Shown here: positions 9,580 through 49,249 of the stretch, piece after piece
Layout of the letters: each line of letters begins with the position of its first letter
Position numbering within the stretch: the stretch's first letter is position 1
Source: an uncultured Bacilli bacterium
GTDB lineage: Bacteria > Bacillota_I > Bacilli_A > RF39 > UBA660
NCBI GenBank assembly: GCA_934167485.1
Contig: CAKPKL010000003.1
Coordinates: 7,153-71,152 of the forward strand
Direction of reading: 5' to 3'
Length of the DNA: 64,000 nt
The notes under the pieces: generated by a model
Databases searched by the model: none
Told to the model about the DNA's origin: nothing
What the model saw: the letters and a program-made list of their open reading frames with translations, nothing else
Position numbers and translations under genes: made by a program

Positions 9580-9608
9580 ATTATACTAAAAAAATATAGA
9601 TTAATCAA
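9580..9608 (-). promoter_or_regulatory. sigma-A-type promoter TTGATT-17-TATAAT (repeat-element copy A) driving pilin-like gene 7655..9545
   Basis: Minus strand reads ttgattaatctatatttttttagtataat. Same ~35-bp element at 23554-23582 and, inverted, at 29836-29870. Confidence 0.6.
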
Positions 9609-9612
9609 TAAC

Positions 9613-10455
9613 CTATATTTTATATTTACTATAGAATTTATCTATTTGAGATTTTTTATTTGTACTTATTTTATCTTTAAATAACTTATCATATTCATAT
9701 TTAAGAACTGTTATATGTTTTGCATCTACATCATTTGTTGGATACATTGTTATAATATCATTTGTATTTGGAACTACTACAACTTTTATAAAATTATACA
9801 AATCTCCAGCACTACTTCCTATATTTGAAACACTAAAATAATGCACTTCCAACATATCTCTTTTATTGGCTTTATTTTTATTATCTATTTGATCTCTTAC
9901 TATATTAAATAAATATTCTAAATCAATATTCTTATTAAAATAAACCTGATTATTATCTTCATTACTTGATATATGATCACTTATATGTTCTAAAGCTAGA
10001 TTTGAATCATAATTTTGTATTTGACTTTTTAACATATCACATCTATCGCCCATTTTAAAATTACAATACATTCCTAATTGTTTTTTCATAACTAATTCAG
10101 ATATAGCAAGTGAATGACCTTTTATTCCCTCTTTACCGTATAACATTGGAAGAAGTTCTAAGGCTTCATTATACATATTTAGGTGATAATATAATAAATA
10201 TAATTCTAGCATAGCATACTCATTATCTTTATATTTAATAGCTTTTGAAAGTTCATTTAACGCTTCATTATACATTTCTAATTCTCTATAAGCCTTAGCC
10301 CTCATAAGTAGTATTTTTTTACCATTATCGCAATAACTCATAAACTTTTCTGATGCTTTCAAAAAATTAGAATATTTACCAGTTTTATATAAATTAACTA
10401 ATCTTGTATAAAAATTATCGTTGATTCTTCTTTTACTAAATTCACTATTACTCAT
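9613..10455 (-). CDS. TPR-repeat-like protein
   Basis: Repeated A..Y.E/AL..L..A helical motifs (AKAYRELEMYNEALNELSKAIKY...YNEALELL). Confidence 0.45.
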   Translation of the reverse strand: MSNSEFSKRRINDNFYTRLVNLYKTGKYSNFLKASEKFMSYCDNGKKILLMRAKAYRELEMYNEALNELSKAIKYKDNEYAMLELYLLYYHLNMYNEALELLPMLYGKEGIKGHSLAISELVMKKQLGMYCNFKMGDRCDMLKSQIQNYDSNLALEHISDHISSNEDNNQVYFNKNIDLEYLFNIVRDQIDNKNKANKRDMLEVHYFSVSNIGSSAGDLYNFIKVVVVPNTNDIITMYPTNDVDAKHITVLKYEYDKLFKDKISTNKKSQIDKFYSKYKI

Positions 10456-27502: not shown

Positions 27503-28161
27503 AATAATATATACCCTTGCCCTTTTCTTGTTTCAATTGAATTATCATAACCTAAACTAGCTAACTTACTTCTCAATCTACTTATATTTACAGTTAAAGC
27601 ATTATCATTAATGTATTCTTCATTATTCCAAAGATTTGTCATAAGTTCATCACGAGTTACTATTCTATTTTTATTAGATAATAAATAATTAAATATAATC
27701 ATTTCATTTTTAGTAAGTTCTACAGTTTCTCCATTCAAACTAAGATTTCCCCTACCTATATCAACATCTATATCATGATATTTTAAAATATCTATAGTGT
27801 GTTCTAATCGTTTAAATAAGTTTTGTATTCTAAGTAATAATATTGTTGGGTTATATGGTTTAGTTATATAATCGTCAGCTCCATATGACATAGATAATAC
27901 CTCATCTGTTTCACTTACTCTACTTGTAAGCATAATAACAGGTACATTAGACTCTTTTCTAATACTTTTTAATAAAGACTGTCCATTAATACTTGGTATA
28001 TTTATATCTAACAAAACTAAATCTGAATTACTTTTTAGTATCTCTTCTTTAGCATTATTAAATTTTTTTAATACGATTGCATTATATCCATCATTTATTA
28101 ATAAATTTTTTAGTTCGCTTGCTATCATTTCTTCATCTTCTACTATTATTATTTTCTTCAT
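27499..28161 (-). CDS. OmpR-family response regulator (BceR-like)
   Basis: Receiver domain (VLLDINIPSINGQ). C-terminal winged helix (LTKNEMIIFNYLLSNKNRIVTRDELM...RLRSKL). Confidence 0.85.
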   Translation of the reverse strand: MKKIIIVEDEEMIASELKNLLINDGYNAIVLKKFNNAKEEILKSNSDLVLLDINIPSINGQSLLKSIRKESNVPVIMLTSRVSETDEVLSMSYGADDYITKPYNPTILLLRIQNLFKRLEHTIDILKYHDIDVDIGRGNLSLNGETVELTKNEMIIFNYLLSNKNRIVTRDELMTNLWNNEEYINDNALTVNISRLRSKLASLGYDNSIETRKGQGYILL

Positions 28162-28220
28162 GATTCACCTCTTCTTTTATTATACATTAAATATTAAAAA
28201 AAGCACAATTAAATGTACTT

Positions 28221-29600
28221 TTAATTTAATTTGGATTTTAAAACCTCTATTACTGGACGTACTCCATGATAGTCCGAATCATCAACGGTAAAGCGGTTAT
28301 CGATCAAACCACTTAAATCTACATACCATGCATAGTTAATATCTCCAGCACTAGAAGACACACTCCAATAACCATGCATATATGATGTTGTTGTTGAATC
28401 AGCATTATTTAAACATCCATAGTCTGTACATGATATATGTGTTCTATCATATAACCATCCATATTGACATCCTGTAGTATTTCTTCCCTCTGTGCATGTA
28501 GAACTTTCTGTTGTTGTTTTACTATCAAAATAATAAAAATCTGTTGCAGTTGTCTCATCCCACTCTGTGTTTCCTGTTATTTTCGCTATTTCATTTGCTG
28601 TTATTATTCTGGCTTTATAATTATTATAATCTACTGTATAATCAGTATTTGTGTAATTTGATGGAGTCTCTGTTCCTTGCCATAAATATGTATCTGTTTT
28701 AAGTTGTGTTAATACTTCATTTGGTCCTGATGTGTTCCGTCCACTTGAGTTCCATGCAATAAGTGCTGTAGTATTATGATCTAAGATAAGATTTACTTTA
28801 TCTCCCCCATCATCATTAAATGCATAAAATTTCATACATCCACTATTTACTCCTGTATTACTTTGTGTTTCTGTATAATTTGAACACTTAGTTCCTGTAT
28901 CCACATTAAAGTATACAACCTCCCCATTTTTAAATGTTTTTATTTCTACACCATTTATTGTTATTATTACTTTGTCAGTTGCTTTTGACAATATCAACGT
29001 TCCTGTTGTTTTATCCCAGGTATATTGTGCCCCTATTACTGTTATATTATCAGGTAAATTATATCCTTCTGGTGCTTTAAAAATTAATGTTTTTGTCTCT
29101 ATATTTTTTATTTGTACTTCATTCTTACTATCACTATTTATATTTGTTAGTTTAAATTCTATATCATACAGTTTTATTTTAGACAACAAATATTCATTTT
29201 TATCTTCATCATACTTAATATAATATCCAGACATTATTAGTGTAGTATCTCCTATTACTGTTCCATCTGTTATAAATATTATTCCACTTGTTGGTTTATT
29301 ACCTTTTACATCTATCTTTATTTCTGTTTCACTACATTTATTATCTACCAATTCGTTTGAGCATATATTCCCATTATTCATGATATAATACTTTCCATTT
29401 TTTATTACTTTACCATTTAAATCTTCTAATGATATTGCTTGTTCTACTCCATTTAAATAATTTTTTACACTTATTTTTATACTTGCTTCTTTACTATTAT
29501 CTATTATATCTAGTACTATTGGTGTTGCGATTAGGGCGATTATCGCTAGTATTACGATTACTGCTAGTAATTCTATTAAAGTAAAACCTTTTCTTTTCAT
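28221..29600 (-). CDS. type IV pilin-like protein (large paralog, 459 aa)
   Basis: MKRKGFTLIELLAVIVILAIIALIATPIVLDII. C-terminal CMKFYAFNDDGGDKVNLILDHNTTA...GVRPVIEVLKSKLN. Confidence 0.75.
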   Translation of the reverse strand: MKRKGFTLIELLAVIVILAIIALIATPIVLDIIDNSKEASIKISVKNYLNGVEQAISLEDLNGKVIKNGKYYIMNNGNICSNELVDNKCSETEIKIDVKGNKPTSGIIFITDGTVIGDTTLIMSGYYIKYDEDKNEYLLSKIKLYDIEFKLTNINSDSKNEVQIKNIETKTLIFKAPEGYNLPDNITVIGAQYTWDKTTGTLILSKATDKVIITINGVEIKTFKNGEVVYFNVDTGTKCSNYTETQSNTGVNSGCMKFYAFNDDGGDKVNLILDHNTTALIAWNSSGRNTSGPNEVLTQLKTDTYLWQGTETPSNYTNTDYTVDYNNYKARIITANEIAKITGNTEWDETTATDFYYFDSKTTTESSTCTEGRNTTGCQYGWLYDRTHISCTDYGCLNNADSTTTSYMHGYWSVSSSAGDINYAWYVDLSGLIDNRFTVDDSDYHGVRPVIEVLKSKLN

Positions 29601-29643
29601 ATTATCCTCCTTCTTTATTTTACTTTTGTAAAGATACCAAAAA

Positions 29644-29688
29644 ACACAAAGAAACCTAGAGTTTTATTCTCTAGATCTTTGTGTTTAT
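29644..29688 (-). terminator. intrinsic terminator / attenuator hairpin inside the 5' leader of pilin-like gene 28221..29600
   Basis: Minus strand cacaaagatctagag-aataaaa-ctctaggtttctttgtg then ttttt. It lies between the poly-G upstream ORF and the pilin RBS. Confidence 0.5.
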
Positions 29689-29720
29689 GTATTCTAATAG
29701 TATTATAGTATAATTAGATA

Positions 29721-29730
29721 CCCCCCCCCC
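29721..29730 (-). repeat. homopolymeric poly-G tract (10 nt) inside an upstream ORF (start 29770) ahead of the pilin-like gene
   Basis: C10 on +. Flank aaaaataatgcct[G10]tatcta. Upstream ORF begins atgaagatatcattaagaaaaaacaataaaaataatgcctgg (MKISLRKNNKNNAWGGG). Confidence 0.8.
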
Positions 29731-29796
29731 AGGCATTATTTTTATTGTTTTTTCTTAATGATATCTTCATATACTACCACTACCTTTACTATATTT

Positions 29797-29825
29797 AGTA
29801 TATATTTTTATACACTATTTGTCAA
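29797..29825 (-). promoter_or_regulatory. consensus promoter TTGACA-17-TATACT for the poly-G leader and pilin transcript
   Basis: Minus strand ttgacaaatagtgtataaaaatatatact, then RBS aaaGGtaGtGG and upstream-ORF ATG at 29770. Confidence 0.55.
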
Positions 29826-29835
29826 TATTTATATT

Positions 29836-29880
29836 AAAAAAATATAGGTTATTGATTAATCTATATTTTATATAAAAGCT
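29836..29880 (+). repeat. third copy (C) of the ~35-bp pilin-promoter element, in inverted orientation and with a degenerate -10
   Basis: + strand aaaaaaatataggttattgattaatctatatttt matches copies A and B, then diverges (atataaaagc instead of tttagtataat). Points toward the 3' end of ORF 29879..30418. Confidence 0.55.
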
Positions 29881-30418
29881 ATTTTAATTTAATAAGTACA
29901 TATATACTTTCTATTAGTGATAATACCTCTGATATAAGTAATAACAACCCTGCTGTTGTTGCAATTGTCATAATTGATGTAAATGGATTAATTATTAATA
30001 ATATACCTAATACTATCATAAGTATAGTAAGTATTACTAACCATATATATTCTGTTAATATTGTACTTAAATTAATAGATAATTGTAACTTAAATAAATT
30101 ACTAACTATTATCCATATACCTAATATTATTGGAAATATATTTATTAAGTCCATTCTATATATAAATATCATTATACCTGATATAAGTGTAATTAAACCT
30201 AATAATAAATCAAAACTAAATAATCTAGATTCATGTGACATTGTAAAGTATGAAACAAAATAACCTATACCATTTATAAACATAATAATAGAAAATATTA
30301 TTACAAATACTTCTAAAGATTTTAATGGATTAATTATTAAAAATATAGAAAGTATTATCATTAAACTAGATATTATTATTGAATAGCTTTCACATCTTTT
30401 TATATATTCTTTTATCAT
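29879..30418 (-). CDS. integral membrane protein, hypothetical
   Basis: 179 aa, about 6 predicted TM helices, no conserved motif recognised. Confidence 0.4.
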   Translation of the reverse strand: MIKEYIKRCESYSIIISSLMIILSIFLIINPLKSLEVFVIIFSIIMFINGIGYFVSYFTMSHESRLFSFDLLLGLITLISGIMIFIYRMDLINIFPIILGIWIIVSNLFKLQLSINLSTILTEYIWLVILTILMIVLGILLIINPFTSIMTIATTAGLLLLISEVLSLIESIYVLIKLK

Positions 30419-30552
30419 ATATTCCTCCTATATTTAGGATACCATATTTTTAAATTTTTATTAATATACAAAAATTATATAAATGTAGTTTATTATACAA
30501 TTATATTTCAGTACTTATTAATTTTTTTATCTATTTCTAATAATTCTTTCAC

Positions 30553-31137
30553 TTAATTCTCCAAATCTTTTAAAGTAATTCCCCAAGAGTTTAAATGTTT
30601 ATATATAGTTTCTGTTGGGATACCTAATATATTATAATAACTTCCTTCTATTTTATCTAAAAAGTTAGATACCATTGTTTCAAAAACAAATCCTGATACA
30701 TGTAATGTACTTGGTTCATTTTCTATATAATAATCTATATCACTTTCACTTATTTTTCTTAAAATAATTTTAGTACTAACACAATCAGTTATTATTTCAT
30801 TATTATATTTATTAATAAGTGTTATACCTGTTATTACATACGAAGTATTTCCAGAACAAAGTCTTAAATTATTTTTAGCTTCTTCTAATGTTTTAGGTTT
30901 TTCTAATATAATACCATCTACATATACTACTGTATCAAGTGATAGTATTATTCCATCATTTATTTTATCTTCTACGCTTTTTGCTTTACCAAAAGATAAG
31001 TCTTTAACATATTTATAAACATCATTATAATTTTTTGACTCTTCCTTAAAATTACTTTCTATATTAGTATGTTTTAATCCTGTTGTATTTAATATTTTAC
31101 TTTTAAATTTAGATGTACTAGCTAATATTAGTTTCAA
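30553..31137 (-). CDS. maf: Maf-like nucleotide pyrophosphatase
   Basis: MKLILASTSKFKSKIL N-terminus. Length 194 aa. Overlaps the next ORF by 4 nt. Confidence 0.55.
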   Translation of the reverse strand: MKLILASTSKFKSKILNTTGLKHTNIESNFKEESKNYNDVYKYVKDLSFGKAKSVEDKINDGIILSLDTVVYVDGIILEKPKTLEEAKNNLRLCSGNTSYVITGITLINKYNNEIITDCVSTKIILRKISESDIDYYIENEPSTLHVSGFVFETMVSNFLDKIEGSYYNILGIPTETIYKHLNSWGITLKDLEN

Positions 31138-45924: not shown

Positions 45925-47157
45925 TTAAATTTTCATCTTTCTTATTTTATTTACTTCAATAAGTAAAAATAACATCGCTAAAAAGCACACACAACTAAGA
46001 ACTAAAACTATAGATAGATATTTATCTTTTTCTTTCATTAATTTATCAATCATATAAGTATTATATCTTTGTACTGAATTTTCTTCTACATCATACAAAT
46101 AATAACCCTCATGACCTGTCATAGTATTAGTCGCATATATTAAATAATAATCATCTAAATCTTCTACTTTATATGCGGTTACTTCTTCTCCATTTATTTT
46201 AATTTTTTTCTTAGTATAGGAACTTTTCTTATCTTCATGAATATATAAATTCATTCTATTAAACTCATACTCTTTATATATACTGTATTTATCAGTTTTT
46301 GAATCATATGCATACAAACCTATATCCCCATCACTATTTTTTAATCCAACTAAAGTTATCTTTGTAACTTCATTATATAAAGTAGGAATATCGAAATCTG
46401 ATATCTTTACAGTATCTTCTTTATAACCATCTTTTGTACCAATCAATTCTCTTTTTTTGATGACTCTATACTTCTTACCATTTATTTCTACCTCAATAGG
46501 ATCTTTTTCTTCCATATTAGCTGTAATCTTATATGTCTTTTCATTTCCATTTTGAGCTATTACAACAATATTTATAGTATTAACGCCTTCACTTACTTGT
46601 ACCTCTCCTGCACCTTTTATAGATGCACTATTATGTTCAGCTACTGCTTTAACATTAATTTTTTCAGTTCCAGGAATAAGCTCTATAGTATATTCCAATG
46701 TATCCTTATTAAAAGCTGTGTTTAATTCATATCCATCAACACTTAAGCTTTTTAAATTATTATTACTACTATATGTTTTATTTATTTCAATTGGTTTTGT
46801 TGTACTCTTTTTTATAACATTAATTGTAATAGAACGACTTCCAGTAAATTCATTACCATCGCCATCTGAAACCTCTGTAGCATTTACAGTTATGGTAGCA
46901 CTCCCTACTTGATTAGCTGTAAAATATAAATCGACTGATGAATTTTCTAACCATTTTGAATCACCACCAGCAAGTACATTACCATTTGATGACGTTATAT
47001 CAAATCTACCAGTTAATCCACTTGCTTCAACTGTAACTTTAACACTATTTCCTACATAAACAGTAGTATTTGCATTTATACTAAAAGCATCTACTTTATT
47101 TACTCCTATAAAAATAGTTAACAAAAGTAAAAATAATATATATTTTATTTTTTTCAC
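45925..47157 (-). CDS. cell-surface protein with signal peptide, Ig/cadherin-like beta-sandwich repeats and C-terminal TM anchor
   Basis: MKKIKYILFLLLLTIFIGVNKVDA signal. LKSLSVDGYELNTAFNKDTLEYTI cadherin-like beta-sandwich motif. C-terminal hydrophobic segment then KIRKMKI. Confidence 0.5.
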   Translation of the reverse strand: MKKIKYILFLLLLTIFIGVNKVDAFSINANTTVYVGNSVKVTVEASGLTGRFDITSSNGNVLAGGDSKWLENSSVDLYFTANQVGSATITVNATEVSDGDGNEFTGSRSITINVIKKSTTKPIEINKTYSSNNNLKSLSVDGYELNTAFNKDTLEYTIELIPGTEKINVKAVAEHNSASIKGAGEVQVSEGVNTINIVVIAQNGNEKTYKITANMEEKDPIEVEINGKKYRVIKKRELIGTKDGYKEDTVKISDFDIPTLYNEVTKITLVGLKNSDGDIGLYAYDSKTDKYSIYKEYEFNRMNLYIHEDKKSSYTKKKIKINGEEVTAYKVEDLDDYYLIYATNTMTGHEGYYLYDVEENSVQRYNTYMIDKLMKEKDKYLSIVLVLSCVCFLAMLFLLIEVNKIRKMKI

Positions 47158-47167
47158 AATTTACCTC

Positions 47168-49249
47168 CTATTGATTGATTGTTCCAGCACCCATAATCAT
47201 ATTTTTTATTTTTACATAATCTGTTGCTTTTACTTGACCATTATGATCAACATCAGCAGCTTCTAAATATGCACCTGACAATGTAATACTTCCCATTATT
47301 TTATTTTTAATTAAAACATAATCTGTTGCTTTTATCTTTCCATCGCCATTTACATCACCATAAATAACTATTTCATACTCTTTAGTTTCTGAACCAATTG
47401 TAATAATTACTTTATCACCGGTTGCGACAACACCAGATTGTTTATCTTGATTTAATTTATTTCTCAAACTTACAACTGCATTTGAATTAGCATTTGTAAT
47501 TCTTGTTCTAATAGCTGATATATCACTTCCTACATTAAATCCACTTAAATATTTATCATTATTTTTAATACCAGCATTATTTAAAGTGGTTGTAACATCT
47601 ATTGGATCATCTATCTTTGTACCTGTTAATATAAAGTTTATTTTATAATATTTAATATCTCCATTTTGAGCTGTTACTTTAAGAGTTTTAGATGTGTTTT
47701 CATTTATATCAAATGTTCCTAATCCACTAATTGTTGCAGATCCATTTACTGGTTTTGCTTCTATTTTAACCTTAGGAGTATTAATATCTACATAATAATT
47801 ATATTCTTCAATATCACCATCAAAATCCGCAACTTTCTTATCATTAATAACTATTTCACTTAAATAATTATTTGGCCATCCACTTCTTACACTTGCATCT
47901 GGAAGTGCGGTAGATGCAGGCATATCACGATATACAGGAATAAAGAAAACATAACTTAAATCAAGTAATCCATTTTCATAATAAGCTCTATATGTAGAAT
48001 GTCCCTCTGTTGATGGAGCTGATATATCTTGCATATATTGATGAGTGTAATTAGCATGATTTGGAGTCTTTCCGCTTCTTACTAAATAGTTATAAACTAC
48101 ATCAAACTTTTTAAAATACCCTGTATCTTGGCCATAAGATAGATAATTCTTTTTAATCCATTTTGCTCCACCTACTATAGCCCTATATTGAGTATTCCAT
48201 GGCTTTAATACATCTTCTTCTGTACCTGCAGCAAAATCAAGTCCTCTATACACAGGGTTTGATCCACTAGTAGCACCTATATTATAAAAGTTATACATAC
48301 CATTATATTGTCCATTAATTGCAGTACCAGGAGTAGCTCCATTTGAAACTTCTCCTTTAGATAAAGACGCTAAATATATAGGACATACACCACTTTGTTT
48401 ACCAGCCTCTAAAAATGTATCAGTAAAACTTGCTAAATAATCTGAACCAAATATACTTTTAATACTTTCTTTCATTTTATCATCACTGGAACTTGTGTCA
48501 TATGCCAAAGACTTAAATTGAAAAATATACATATCTCTTAGAAAATTTCTAGGATCCAAATAATAAGATATTGTTTGAGTGTTTATTCTATACCAAGGAT
48601 CACTACCTGTTACATCATCAAAAGCAATATAATAATCATCCTTGTAATTAAATGAACTAGGTCCTACTTCTAGATAAGCATAATTATTTGACATACTTCT
48701 TCTAAGTAAACTTCTAGAACCATACCACTCATTTTGTACCACTTCTTCAAAAGTTAATTCAGTATCTATAGCAACGAAATTCCAGTTAGGATGAGCACTT
48801 TTTAAGAAAGCTAAATTATCCCAATAACTCTCAGGAAAACCAGCATTTTTAAATTGATTTTTTAAATAATCATTAAGAAGTGAATCCTTCTTTAAATTAG
48901 CATTACAAAAATATCCTTCATAAGTCTTTCCTACACTATCGAAATAAAATGTAGCCTTAACATAGTAATCACTACATAAATTAGTATCTTTGGTTGCTAC
49001 CTGTTCTCCATTTTCTATTATAGTTACTACATCACCAGTATCAAGAGCATACAATCCACTCGATACAGAATTTAAATTTTTATCTTTATAAAAACAAGAT
49101 GAACCATTATAAACTTTTCCATTTATTGGGCATTTAGTATTAGCCGGATTCATAACAGTTGCTTTATAATCAGCTTGTACATGATCTATAAATAAAAGAG
49201 ATGATATAACAAAAGTAACAATAAATAAATATTTATATGCCATTTTCAT
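47168..49249 (-). CDS. secreted glycoside/peptidoglycan-hydrolase-like protein with C-terminal dockerin-type repeats
   Basis: Signal peptide. Central domain (YLDPRNF...). C-terminal paired Ca-binding repeats DVNGDGKIKATDYVLIKN...DVDHNGQVKATDYVKIKN typical of dockerin type I. Confidence 0.5.
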   Translation of the reverse strand: MKMAYKYLFIVTFVISSLLFIDHVQADYKATVMNPANTKCPINGKVYNGSSCFYKDKNLNSVSSGLYALDTGDVVTIIENGEQVATKDTNLCSDYYVKATFYFDSVGKTYEGYFCNANLKKDSLLNDYLKNQFKNAGFPESYWDNLAFLKSAHPNWNFVAIDTELTFEEVVQNEWYGSRSLLRRSMSNNYAYLEVGPSSFNYKDDYYIAFDDVTGSDPWYRINTQTISYYLDPRNFLRDMYIFQFKSLAYDTSSSDDKMKESIKSIFGSDYLASFTDTFLEAGKQSGVCPIYLASLSKGEVSNGATPGTAINGQYNGMYNFYNIGATSGSNPVYRGLDFAAGTEEDVLKPWNTQYRAIVGGAKWIKKNYLSYGQDTGYFKKFDVVYNYLVRSGKTPNHANYTHQYMQDISAPSTEGHSTYRAYYENGLLDLSYVFFIPVYRDMPASTALPDASVRSGWPNNYLSEIVINDKKVADFDGDIEEYNYYVDINTPKVKIEAKPVNGSATISGLGTFDINENTSKTLKVTAQNGDIKYYKINFILTGTKIDDPIDVTTTLNNAGIKNNDKYLSGFNVGSDISAIRTRITNANSNAVVSLRNKLNQDKQSGVVATGDKVIITIGSETKEYEIVIYGDVNGDGKIKATDYVLIKNKIMGSITLSGAYLEAADVDHNGQVKATDYVKIKNMIMGAGTINQ

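Follow-up and report, generated by a model that had tools for sequence, protein, structure and literature searches.

Repeat slippage is known to bring about phase variation from within coding regions or promoters, and attenuation is known as a response to physiological signals. The window, i.e. the whole 64,000-nt stretch of DNA analyzed here, contains a prepilin-type gene preceded by a slippery G10 tract (29730-29721, minus strand) that lies within a short upstream ORF (uORF), in neither the structural gene nor the promoter. In contrast to classical coding-region slippage, the gene is set apart from this tract by a stop codon, by a terminator and by a Shine-Dalgarno site and ATG of its own, so that a frameshift cannot act directly on the protein. 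How, then, could a change in tract length reach the gene? We propose, as a candidate reading to which we give a little less than an even chance, that the region 29825-29598, termed the cassette, is a phase-variable, ribosome-dependent attenuator acting on transcription.

The leader of the prepilin-type gene

All the features of the locus are carried by the minus strand. The promoter is of the sigma-70 type, composed of TTGACA (29825-29820) and TATACT (29802-29797) separated by a 17-nt spacer. It matches at 11 of 12 positions, represents the top promoter match within 28000-30600 and has a predicted transcription start at about 29790. The uORF starts with the ATG at 29770 and is preceded by a Shine-Dalgarno site, AAAGGTAGTGGTAG (29787-29774), a two-part match to the 16S 3' end with the GGTAG core positioned 9 nt before the start codon. 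The predicted duplex of this site with the 16S 3' end is worth -11.5 kcal/mol, as compared with -12.6 kcal/mol for the AAGGAGG site of the pilin gene. With the present G10, the uORF (29770-29714) reads MKISLRKNNKNNAWGGGI, followed by a stop codon. Further downstream, an 18-pair stem-loop (29686-29642) and a T6 run (29644-29639) make up a putative intrinsic terminator (29686-29639). The hairpin has a folding energy of -19.5 kcal/mol and a z-score of -5.9, with none of 200 shuffles folding as well, and together with the T6 run it is also detected by a terminator scan. Searched as a dispersed repeat, it has no second occurrence in the window. The promoter, ribosome-binding site, uORF and G10 tract placed before the pilin-like gene by an earlier note on this DNA are thus all present, and its strong hairpin with a U run is borne out, the fold of the leader supporting a terminator.

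The gene itself (29600-28221, or 29612-28221 when its Shine-Dalgarno site AAGGAGG at 29612-29606 is included) encodes a protein of 459 residues starting with MKRKG/FTLIELL and matches the PF07963 N_methyl family (E 6e-8). Its class III signal peptide region, MKRKG/FTLIELLAVIVILAIIALIA, carries all the features of a type IV pilin or pseudopilin: a short basic leader, the G/F cleavage site, a Glu at +5 and a hydrophobic N-terminal helix. Between the terminator and the pilin ATG, no second promoter was found in the promoter scan, and hence expression of the gene needs read-through. A TATAAT-like box located upstream of the hairpin (29703-29698) was rejected as a promoter: it is without a usable -35 element and is lost in a related copy of the cassette, L008. 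The segment following the terminator also contains a CTTTAC box (29633-29628), complementary to the 5' GTAAAG that forms part of the uORF Shine-Dalgarno site. On its other side, the cassette is shielded from upstream transcription by a terminator-like hairpin at the end of the upstream DUF308 gene, ATATAG-ATTAATCAATAAC-CTATAT followed by a T run (29866-29842). Compared with the orthologous locus L033 and with locus 1 of the window, the latter hairpin has its loop in inverted orientation.

Tract length and reading frame

We recomputed the frame walk for the different tract lengths. As the earlier note had calculated, the uORF stops at 29714 with 10 G and at 29703 (stop codon 29705-29703) with 11 G. 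With 9 or 12 G, it runs into a TAG (29673-29671) that is reached solely when the G number is 0 mod 3 and that occupies nucleotides 14-16 of the 18-nt 5' arm of the hairpin. The same note had this frame reading past both arms and the U run to 29620, which is wrong. Its attenuator geometry gated by the G number is therefore retained in one respect, as one of the three frames alone meets the terminator, and abandoned in the other, the read-through past the U run.

In the mechanism that we propose, a constitutive promoter would start an mRNA that opens with a short leader ORF provided with a good Shine-Dalgarno site of its own, and replication slippage would alter the length of the G tract and shift the frame of this ORF. 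In two of the frames, the ribosome would stop 27 nt (G10) or 16 nt (G11) before the terminator; the hairpin would then form, transcription would end and the pilin-like gene would be OFF. The present G10 would be one such OFF state. In the third frame, the ribosome would enter the 5' arm and stop at the internal TAG, preventing hairpin formation while RNA polymerase crosses the U run, and the gene would be transcribed (ON). From the sequence elements, we infer translation of the uORF, termination at the hairpin and the control of this termination by the position of the ribosome.

The arrangement with one frame entering the hairpin and two stopping before it is found in 13 of 13 distinct copies of the cassette, which belong to two diverged subfamilies and come from related human-gut metagenome genomes. 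It is realized in three different G-number registers, the ON register being 0, 1 or 2 mod 3 depending on the copy. The OFF-frame stops lie 27-26 and 16-15 nt upstream of the hairpin (7 nt in L008), and the hairpin-entering frame ends in the 5' arm, in the loop (L016) or, in subfamily 2, in the 3' arm. Exactly one open frame in the 34-nt spacer is also obtained in about half of shuffles (~0.5), and for this reason the frame geometry, unremarkable alone, was not used as statistical evidence. The N-terminal part of the uORF is open in diverged versions (MKISLRKNNKNNAW, MVKEISNKIFVRTTW, MVKEVRTKLAENLIW and MVKEKIMKLAQNPT), each with a ~0.27 chance of being open after shuffling.

Runs of at least 10 G are expected 4e-4 times in this 25% G+C window, and three are present. 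All three are part of the motif AAAAATAAYRCCTG(n) and lie either before or within a prepilin-type gene, as against 0.07 such matches expected. The tract has two features of a simple-sequence-repeat contingency locus: it is long enough to slip (about 8 or more units) and its length differs between otherwise identical sequences. Indeed, five contigs (L001-L005), identical in all other respects, carry 10, 10, 12, 10 and 10 G, respectively, the window carrying G10, and the leaders with G10 and G12 are 100% identical apart from the tract. Since these leaders and that of the window are collinear and identical save for the G number, an invertible-DNA switch was rejected. Similarly, a type A locus (see below) sampled in L012 and L013 has G8 in one case and G11 in the other. 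Tract length ranges from 8 to 12 G across all copies, and the tract is uninterrupted in every copy found; the cassettes retrieved via protein look-ups, which were not chosen for having a tract, all carry an uninterrupted run of at least 9 G. Six contigs break precisely at the G tract. The assembled tract has an OFF length at all 13 distinct loci, for which (2/3)^13 = 0.005, with the copies not being independent. A single locus was sampled repeatedly, and of its six sequences one, L003, has an ON length; the contig of this sole ON-length copy has 2.7x coverage. Classical type A loci are likewise mostly OFF.

Cassette copies, sister loci and leader structure

The cassette is about 190 nt in size and precedes pilin-like genes of different kinds as well as one clostripain-protease operon (Peptidase_C11, L008). 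The leader is conserved between the copies and the flanks are unrelated; judged by this comparison, the cassette is conserved and modular. The promoter hexamers are kept in other copies, with a variable spacer sequence. The uORF ATG and Shine-Dalgarno site are kept in all aligned copies: the site is invariant in 8 of the 10, has a G-to-A change at one position in subfamily 2 and a single A-to-T change in L036. We suggest, slightly more tentatively than the attenuator itself, that this would be a portable cassette turning slippage into ON/OFF transcription of any downstream gene or operon. The cassette is absent from distant pilin homologues (L020-L028, ~50-55% identity) and from the closer L031/L032 (P0011, 56% identity), and is thus lineage-restricted. 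In L031/L032, which are orthologous to L029, the uORF and the tract are gone; the hairpin remains, with an ordinary promoter downstream of it, an arrangement to be expected of a hairpin that blocks transcription.

With its promoter, 5' stem-loop and intrinsic terminator, the unit also resembles a small RNA gene in layout. It could be an independent small gene, for a small RNA of ~150 nt or a peptide of 17-40 aa, the pilin gene being expressed through incidental read-through only. We regard this as very improbable, given that the unit always lies directly before a gene without its own promoter, that it matches no Rfam family (no hit at the gathering score in the whole window, and noise only at E up to 10 in 29300-30100) and that the peptide sequence is not conserved, the uORF sequences of the two subfamilies having diverged beyond recognition. 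A riboswitch-controlled pilin leader, of the type of the c-di-GMP-II riboswitch upstream of C. difficile pilA1, was rejected as no Rfam aptamer was matched.

Two sister loci, here analyzed by frame translation, carry the other long G tracts of the window on the same strand. In the type A locus (9545-9507), the ATG is followed by AATAACGCCTG(10), and the prepilin ORF contains the tract (9526-9517). When the tract counts 9 or 12 G, this ORF reads MRKNNAWGGVTYSKG/FTLIELL and continues through to 7655, and with 10 G it is frameshifted (OFF); the type A copy L018, with G9, is in frame. The tract is thus within the coding ORF, where its length would change expression, and the locus is a case of classical slipped-strand phase variation. 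The type B locus (53426-53379) lacks a hairpin and has a uORF whose tract (53407-53397) is G11. At a tract length of 9 or 12 G, the uORF joins in frame with the pilin-like gene 53343-51883, for which a separate Shine-Dalgarno site and ATG are also present. When the type B pilin was looked up as an exact protein, using two alternative starts, there was no match. Types A, B and C, the last being the locus under study, have a common motif and frame, and homology links the open frame of type C (VSSYTITLL) to the type B coding frame (VSNYTIILL). From the type A loci, the homologous ATG can be taken as a genuine start codon, and the tract as a driver of classical ON/OFF switching in the same genome.

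This kinship counts against the proposed mechanism insofar as the open frame corresponds to the ancestral frame in which types A and B encode the pilin, and could thus be a relic. The locus would then descend from in-frame phase variation, from type A via type B, with the pilin gene later gaining its own start codon; the uORF and the G tract would control nothing, and the hairpin would be a constitutive partial terminator or an inherited insulator. The motif and frame common to the three types and the homology of the open frame are consistent with such a descent, as are the ordinary frame geometry in shuffles and the hairpin of L031, which is able to act as an ordinary upstream terminator. However, an unselected run of 9 to 12 G should decay in a 25% G+C genome, and it stands uninterrupted in 13 of 13 copies from two subfamilies. 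In addition, the uORF start codon and Shine-Dalgarno site have been kept in all aligned copies, the cassette has been recruited to a non-pilin operon, and a strong terminator between a gene and its only promoter would silence the gene unless relieved. We consider a functionless remnant unlikely, though by no means negligible.

The upstream part of the leader is predicted to form a helix, P1. Its 5' strand (29784-29770) takes in most of the uORF Shine-Dalgarno site (29784-29774 out of 29787-29774) plus the first base, A, of the ATG, and its 3' strand (29712-29696), just downstream of the G tract, contains the 11-G stop. The prediction of P1 extends to 9 of 10 copies, and between the subfamilies one A-U pair is replaced by G-C, a compensatory change. 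The G tract is placed at the 3' side of the P1 apical loop, and its last Gs pair in a second helix, P2. The terminator hairpin keeps its pairing across the copies, with one G-C to C-G swap and several wobble changes. RNAalifold found no compensatory pairs in seven close copies; when subfamily 2 is added, there is one compensatory pair per helix, in sequences that amount effectively to 3-4 lineages. These covarying pairs were counted by script, as MAFFT misaligned the subfamily 2 inner stem by one column. Leaders of types A and B show no structure better than shuffles.

Such a structure could let the tract act without translation, through the size of the P1 loop, through pausing or slippage of the polymerase along the G run, or through a G-rich structure, and termination or mRNA stability would then be graded and not follow a mod-3 rule. 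The tract does lie in the loop of a conserved 5' helix with its last Gs paired in P2, and a 5' stem-loop can stabilize mRNA in Bacillota. Against this, P1 and P2 alone outdo shuffled sequences only slightly (z -2.15), P2 is not conserved in L030, and no pairing between the G tract and the terminator is predicted. The upkeep of the ATG, the Shine-Dalgarno site and the open uORF would also be left unexplained, making a translation-free effect distinctly unlikely in our view. In folds of single sequences and of the consensus, neither arm of the terminator finds an alternative partner. A G-quadruplex was rejected, as a lone G10 cannot make the standard four-run structure.

Two further points bear on the ribosome-dependent attenuator. 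By prediction, the uORF Shine-Dalgarno site and AUG become trapped in P1 once it has been transcribed, which counts against the mechanism. The main caveat is that transcription-translation coupling in the host is probably poor: the coding strands of the window are 58% purine and 46 of its 51 genes lie on one strand, and Bacillota are classed as having 'runaway' transcription, of which purine bias and gene-strand bias are hallmarks (PMC13323073). RNA polymerase outrunning the ribosomes works against a simple occlusion of the terminator by the ribosome, which would need a polymerase pause to arrive in time. No conserved pause signal was found in the leader.

Comparison with known switches

In E. 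coli rph-pyrE and in pyrBI, as in the cassette, an upstream ORF ends beside an intrinsic attenuator, and read-through is believed to depend on how near the ribosome gets. Frameshifts are believed to alter pyrE expression by displacing this upstream stop, and to lower it when the stop ends up farther from the attenuator (PMC2784333, citing the rph-pyrE attenuation work of Jensen 1993 and Bonekamp 1984). The 1-bp rph deletion of MG1655 (rph-1, K-12) leads to low pyrE enzyme levels, and an 82-bp deletion restoring the stop position was proposed to raise pyrE, with no significant pyrE upregulation seen (PMC2784333). The cassette has the leader ORF and ribosome-binding site near the promoter and the intrinsic terminator before the structural gene that typify pyrBI/pyrE leaders, and its leader ORF ends in or next to the hairpin in one frame only (9 or 12 G). 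In rph-pyrE, however, the signal comes from UTP-dependent pausing of the polymerase, and the frameshift arose as a fixed mutation in the laboratory, in an enterobacterium, whereas in the cassette the reversible G-tract frameshift would itself be the signal, in a dedicated mini-ORF of a low-G+C Bacillota-like host. Gating by a homopolymer had been put forward as undescribed. Indeed, no repeat-gated uORF or terminator switch was found in the literature searched, whose coverage leaves out most subscription journals, but the principle has a precedent in rph-pyrE.

Other systems resemble single aspects of the cassette. Neisseria pilC, an example of classical slipped-strand phase variation in a coding region, has a poly-G tract in its signal-peptide region; a pilus-related gene thus carries a run of G close to its 5' end and is ON in one frame out of three, and the type A locus of the window belongs to exactly this kind. 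In N. meningitidis siaD, a poly-C frameshift reportedly leads to Rho-dependent intracistronic termination (Lavitola et al., 1999), so that tract slippage changes transcription via lost translation; this is Rho-dependent polarity within a long structural gene, whereas the cassette is a dedicated leader with an intrinsic terminator. In C. difficile cwpV, phase-variable premature termination is brought about by DNA inversion. The inversion switches of C. difficile flgB and E. coli fim likewise impose a stochastic, heritable premature termination between promoter and gene (PMC12360218). They rely on an invertible segment, inverted repeats and a recombinase, whereas in the cassette nothing but the tract length varies, a recombinase site is lacking and the switch is proposed to work through translation. 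The B. subtilis vmlR/ABCF leaders are Bacillota leaders that also have a short uORF with a Shine-Dalgarno site upstream of an intrinsic terminator; in vmlR, the position of the ribosome on the uORF decides termination, helped by polymerase pausing (PMC9226507). These leaders differ in sensing antibiotic-stalled ribosomes via antiterminator and anti-antiterminator helices, none of which is predicted in the cassette, where the input would be a mutation. Attenuation of the trp type was rejected, as no alternative antiterminator helix is predicted and the leader is without runs of regulatory codons.

If the proposed mechanism holds, the cassette would provide the first case of an attenuator under the control of a mutable repeat and not of a metabolite, tRNA, protein or drug. 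It would allow any gene or operon to be made phase-variable without touching its coding sequence or promoter, which would account for its spread to various surface-protein genes, including the protease operon. It would also imply an effective interplay of ribosome and polymerase in a Bacillota-like gut bacterium, and provide a natural test case for the influence of ribosomes on intrinsic termination where transcription is thought to be uncoupled. An abundant uncultured lineage of the human gut would then run a contingency-locus family for pilin-like adhesins, with a bearing on colonization and immune evasion.

Architecture of the leader and reading frames of the uORF

All features of the locus lie on the minus strand, in a window of 25% G+C. 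The promoter, TTGACA-17-TATACT (29825–29797), is the top match within the surrounding 2.6 kb, and the uORF opens with an ATG at 29770, about 20 nt 3′ of the predicted transcription start. Its ribosome-binding site, AAAGGTAGTGGTAG, is a two-part match to the 3′ end of the 16S rRNA, with a predicted duplex energy of −11.5 kcal/mol versus −12.6 kcal/mol for the AAGGAGG of the pilin gene. The encoded peptide, MKISLRKNNKNNAW, runs into a G10 tract (29730–29721), and an 18-pair hairpin at 29686–29642 is followed by T6. The fold (−19.5 kcal/mol, z −5.9, with no shuffle reaching equal stability) and the T6 bear out the strong hairpin and U run that an earlier note had placed 5′ of the pilin gene. This gene starts at ATG 29600 and its 459-aa product carries a prepilin N-terminal methylation motif; a promoter scan found no promoter-like site between the hairpin and this ATG.

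The preceding DUF308 gene is closed by a hairpin and T run (29866–29842), whose 13-nt loop is the exact reverse complement of the loop in the orthologous locus L033 and in locus 1 (9594–9618). At type A loci, in which the tract lies inside a prepilin ORF, the −35 hexamer TTGATT comes from this upstream-hairpin loop, so that the orientation of the loop might influence promoter strength. In the related contig L001 (2173–2722), the gene calls split the DUF308 gene 5′ of the cassette into two ORFs (65 and 134 aa) in place of one of 179 aa, which may reflect a frameshift or an assembly error.

The uORF was translated in silico with 7 to 14 G. The stops at 29714 with 10 G and at 29703 with 11 G are those of the earlier note; with 9 or 12 G, the proposed read-through to 29620 does not occur, and the uORF ends at a TAG (29673–29671), nt 14–16 within the 18-nt 5′ arm of the terminator hairpin. 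Two frames halt 27 and 16 nt upstream of the hairpin (proposed OFF states), and the third would set the terminating ribosome on its 5′ arm (proposed ON state). The usual ribosome footprint extends about 12 nt past the A site, and on this estimate a ribosome at the TAG would shield both the 5′ arm and the loop. Apart from the one frame error, the observation is real: since one frame of three would bring the ribosome onto the 5′ arm, its central point, that the frame decides ribosome access to the terminator, holds in altered form.

Sister tracts in the window

Runs of at least seven G or C occur only three times in the window, all on one strand and all in the motif AAAAATAAYRCCTG(n), each tied to a prepilin-type gene; the C-terminal parts of the products differ (none recognised, BspA-type LRR, and DUF6273). 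In type A (motif 9545–9507, G10 tract 9526–9517, ORF 9517–7655, minus strand), the tract lies inside a prepilin ORF (N_methyl and DUF6273), for which no alternative start exists. A tract of 9 or 12 G lets the ORF read in frame as MRKNNAWGGVTYSKG followed by FTLIELL..., and the 10 G now present throw it out of frame; on its sequence, type A is classical slipped-strand phase variation, now OFF. A related contig, L018, has an in-frame G9. In type B (minus strand, uORF 53426–53379, G11), the 0 mod 3 frame (9 or 12 G) continues into a pilin-like ORF with BspA-type LRRs (53343–51883), which would add a 32-aa leader to a gene that also has a Shine-Dalgarno site and ATG of its own. In type C, the locus under study, uORF and gene are separated by an inserted terminator and a new start site.

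The motif's clear-cut classical role at type A, within the same genome, argues for a working switch at type C. Against it, the type C frame geometry may be a legacy of the frame used for coding in types A and B, and in shuffle tests this geometry alone is not unusual.

Elsewhere in the window (45925–49249, minus strand), neighbouring genes for a dockerin-bearing 693-aa protein and for a protein with a cadherin-like β-sandwich domain suggest that this organism builds surface assemblies, cellulosome-like or of another kind.

Distribution and conservation of the cassette

An exact-protein look-up returned five human-gut metagenome contigs, with leaders 100% identical to that of the window except for the tract (10, 10, 12, 10, and 10 G). 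A motif scan of species-representative genomes gave a match in one genome only, the 25% G+C MAG CAVEJT01. This MAG holds five type C cassettes (L006–L010); one of them (L008, 1958–5833) precedes a gene for a membrane-anchored Peptidase_C11 (clostripain family), behind which lie two overlapping genes that encode Q/N-rich membrane proteins. The cassette is thus not confined to pilin genes, and in L008 it may control a whole operon. CAVEJT01 is recorded as 'Bacteroidaceae bacterium', a label that looks doubtful; its loci have 23–26% G+C, and the related window shows Bacillota-type traits (58% coding-strand purine, 46 of 51 genes co-oriented, a YlbD_coat gene). A metagenome scan and homologue look-ups gave further copies, some of them in a diverged subfamily 2 (L029, L030, L035/L036, and L037), and several contigs terminate exactly within the tract. 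In more distant pilin homologues the cassette is missing and the promoters are plain. L031 and L032, orthologous to L029, lack uORF and tract and carry an ordinary TTGACA-17-TATAAT promoter 3′ of a leftover hairpin. In the cassette-free relatives L021–L028, L031, and L032, promoters follow the pattern TTGACAAAT[AG]CTTCTGGGG[GT]AG[AG]GTATAAT, whose spacer holds a short G run; this run is invariant in eight contigs and therefore probably not slippery.

Conservation was judged over 13 distinct type C copies, which are related to each other. The promoter hexamers are retained in the aligned subfamily 1 copies, with variable spacer sequences; in subfamily 2, L030 has TTGACA-17-TATAAT, and in L029 no properly spaced −35 can be recognised. 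The uORF Shine-Dalgarno site and ATG are retained, and the uORF is open in all versions despite a near-complete sequence change between subfamilies (chance after shuffling about 0.27 per version). L036 differs from L035 by one A-to-T change in the Shine-Dalgarno site (AGTAAAGG to AGTAATGG), the two being otherwise identical across the ~315 nt shown (leader and first 45 nt of the gene). The tract, of 8–12 G, is uninterrupted in every copy, including those found through protein look-ups, which were therefore not selected for it. Hairpin stability ranges from −13.5 to −20.7 kcal/mol, with one compensatory change (G-C to C-G) and several wobble changes that keep the pairing. In each copy a single frame reaches the hairpin. 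Its stop falls within the 5′ arm, except in L016, which has a 1-nt deletion and stops in the loop, and in subfamily 2, where the 3′ arm holds the stop; the remaining two frames end at −27/−26 and −16/−15 (−7 in L008). The ON register differs by copy (0, 2, or 1 mod 3), moved by small tract-adjacent indels.

A 5′ leader helix, P1, is also conserved: it is predicted in nine of ten copies, and in it a stretch just 3′ of the tract pairs with most of the Shine-Dalgarno site of the uORF and with the initial base of its start codon. P1 shows one A-U to G-C compensatory change, and in subfamily 2 it takes in more of the start codon through an extension of different sequence but kept complementarity. 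P1 may allow uORF translation only co-transcriptionally, serve as a pause hairpin, or confer stability on the 5′ end. Shortly 3′ of the terminator, a conserved (C)CTTTAC box (29628–29633) is complementary to GTAAAG(G) in the uORF Shine-Dalgarno site; it occupies the same position in L007, L009, L010, L016, L017, L029, L030, L035, and L037, is absent from L008, and could close the entire leader in read-through transcripts.

Evidence for and against a proposed switch and relation to known systems

A maintained and polymorphic tract, a modular cassette and a retained translatable uORF suggest a working switch, as does the strong terminator that separates the gene from its only promoter. The assembled tract has an OFF length at 13 of 13 loci, as classical type A loci mostly do, a pattern merely suggestive because the copies are related. 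Against a switch, covariation is thin, and the single sequence of ON length, L003 (among the six known for the window's locus), derives from a low-coverage contig. The purine share (58%) and gene co-orientation (46 of 51) also count against it, as they fit Bacillota, which a recent study classed as having runaway transcription (PMC13323073). In such bacteria uORF-dependent attenuation works when the polymerase pauses, as at B. subtilis vmlR (PMC9226507); no conserved pause signal was found in the cassette leaders. On balance, tract length probably governs downstream expression in some way; repeat-gated uORF attenuation, the specific mechanism, is the best available explanation, proposed tentatively and at slightly under an even chance.

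Tests of the locus for a trp-type attenuator, a riboswitch, and an invertible switch were all negative. In working principle, the nearest system is E. coli rph-pyrE, where frameshifts alter the distance from the upstream stop codon to the attenuator (PMC2784333), which is thought to set pyrE expression. The nearest biological analogues are the poly-G tracts of Neisseria pilus genes, and the C. difficile and E. coli inversion switches acting via termination (PMC12360218). No repeat-gated leader-ORF attenuator was found in the literature searched, whose coverage excludes most subscription journals. The cassette would be a variant combining two known kinds of control, phase variation and attenuation, of high interest for both fields.
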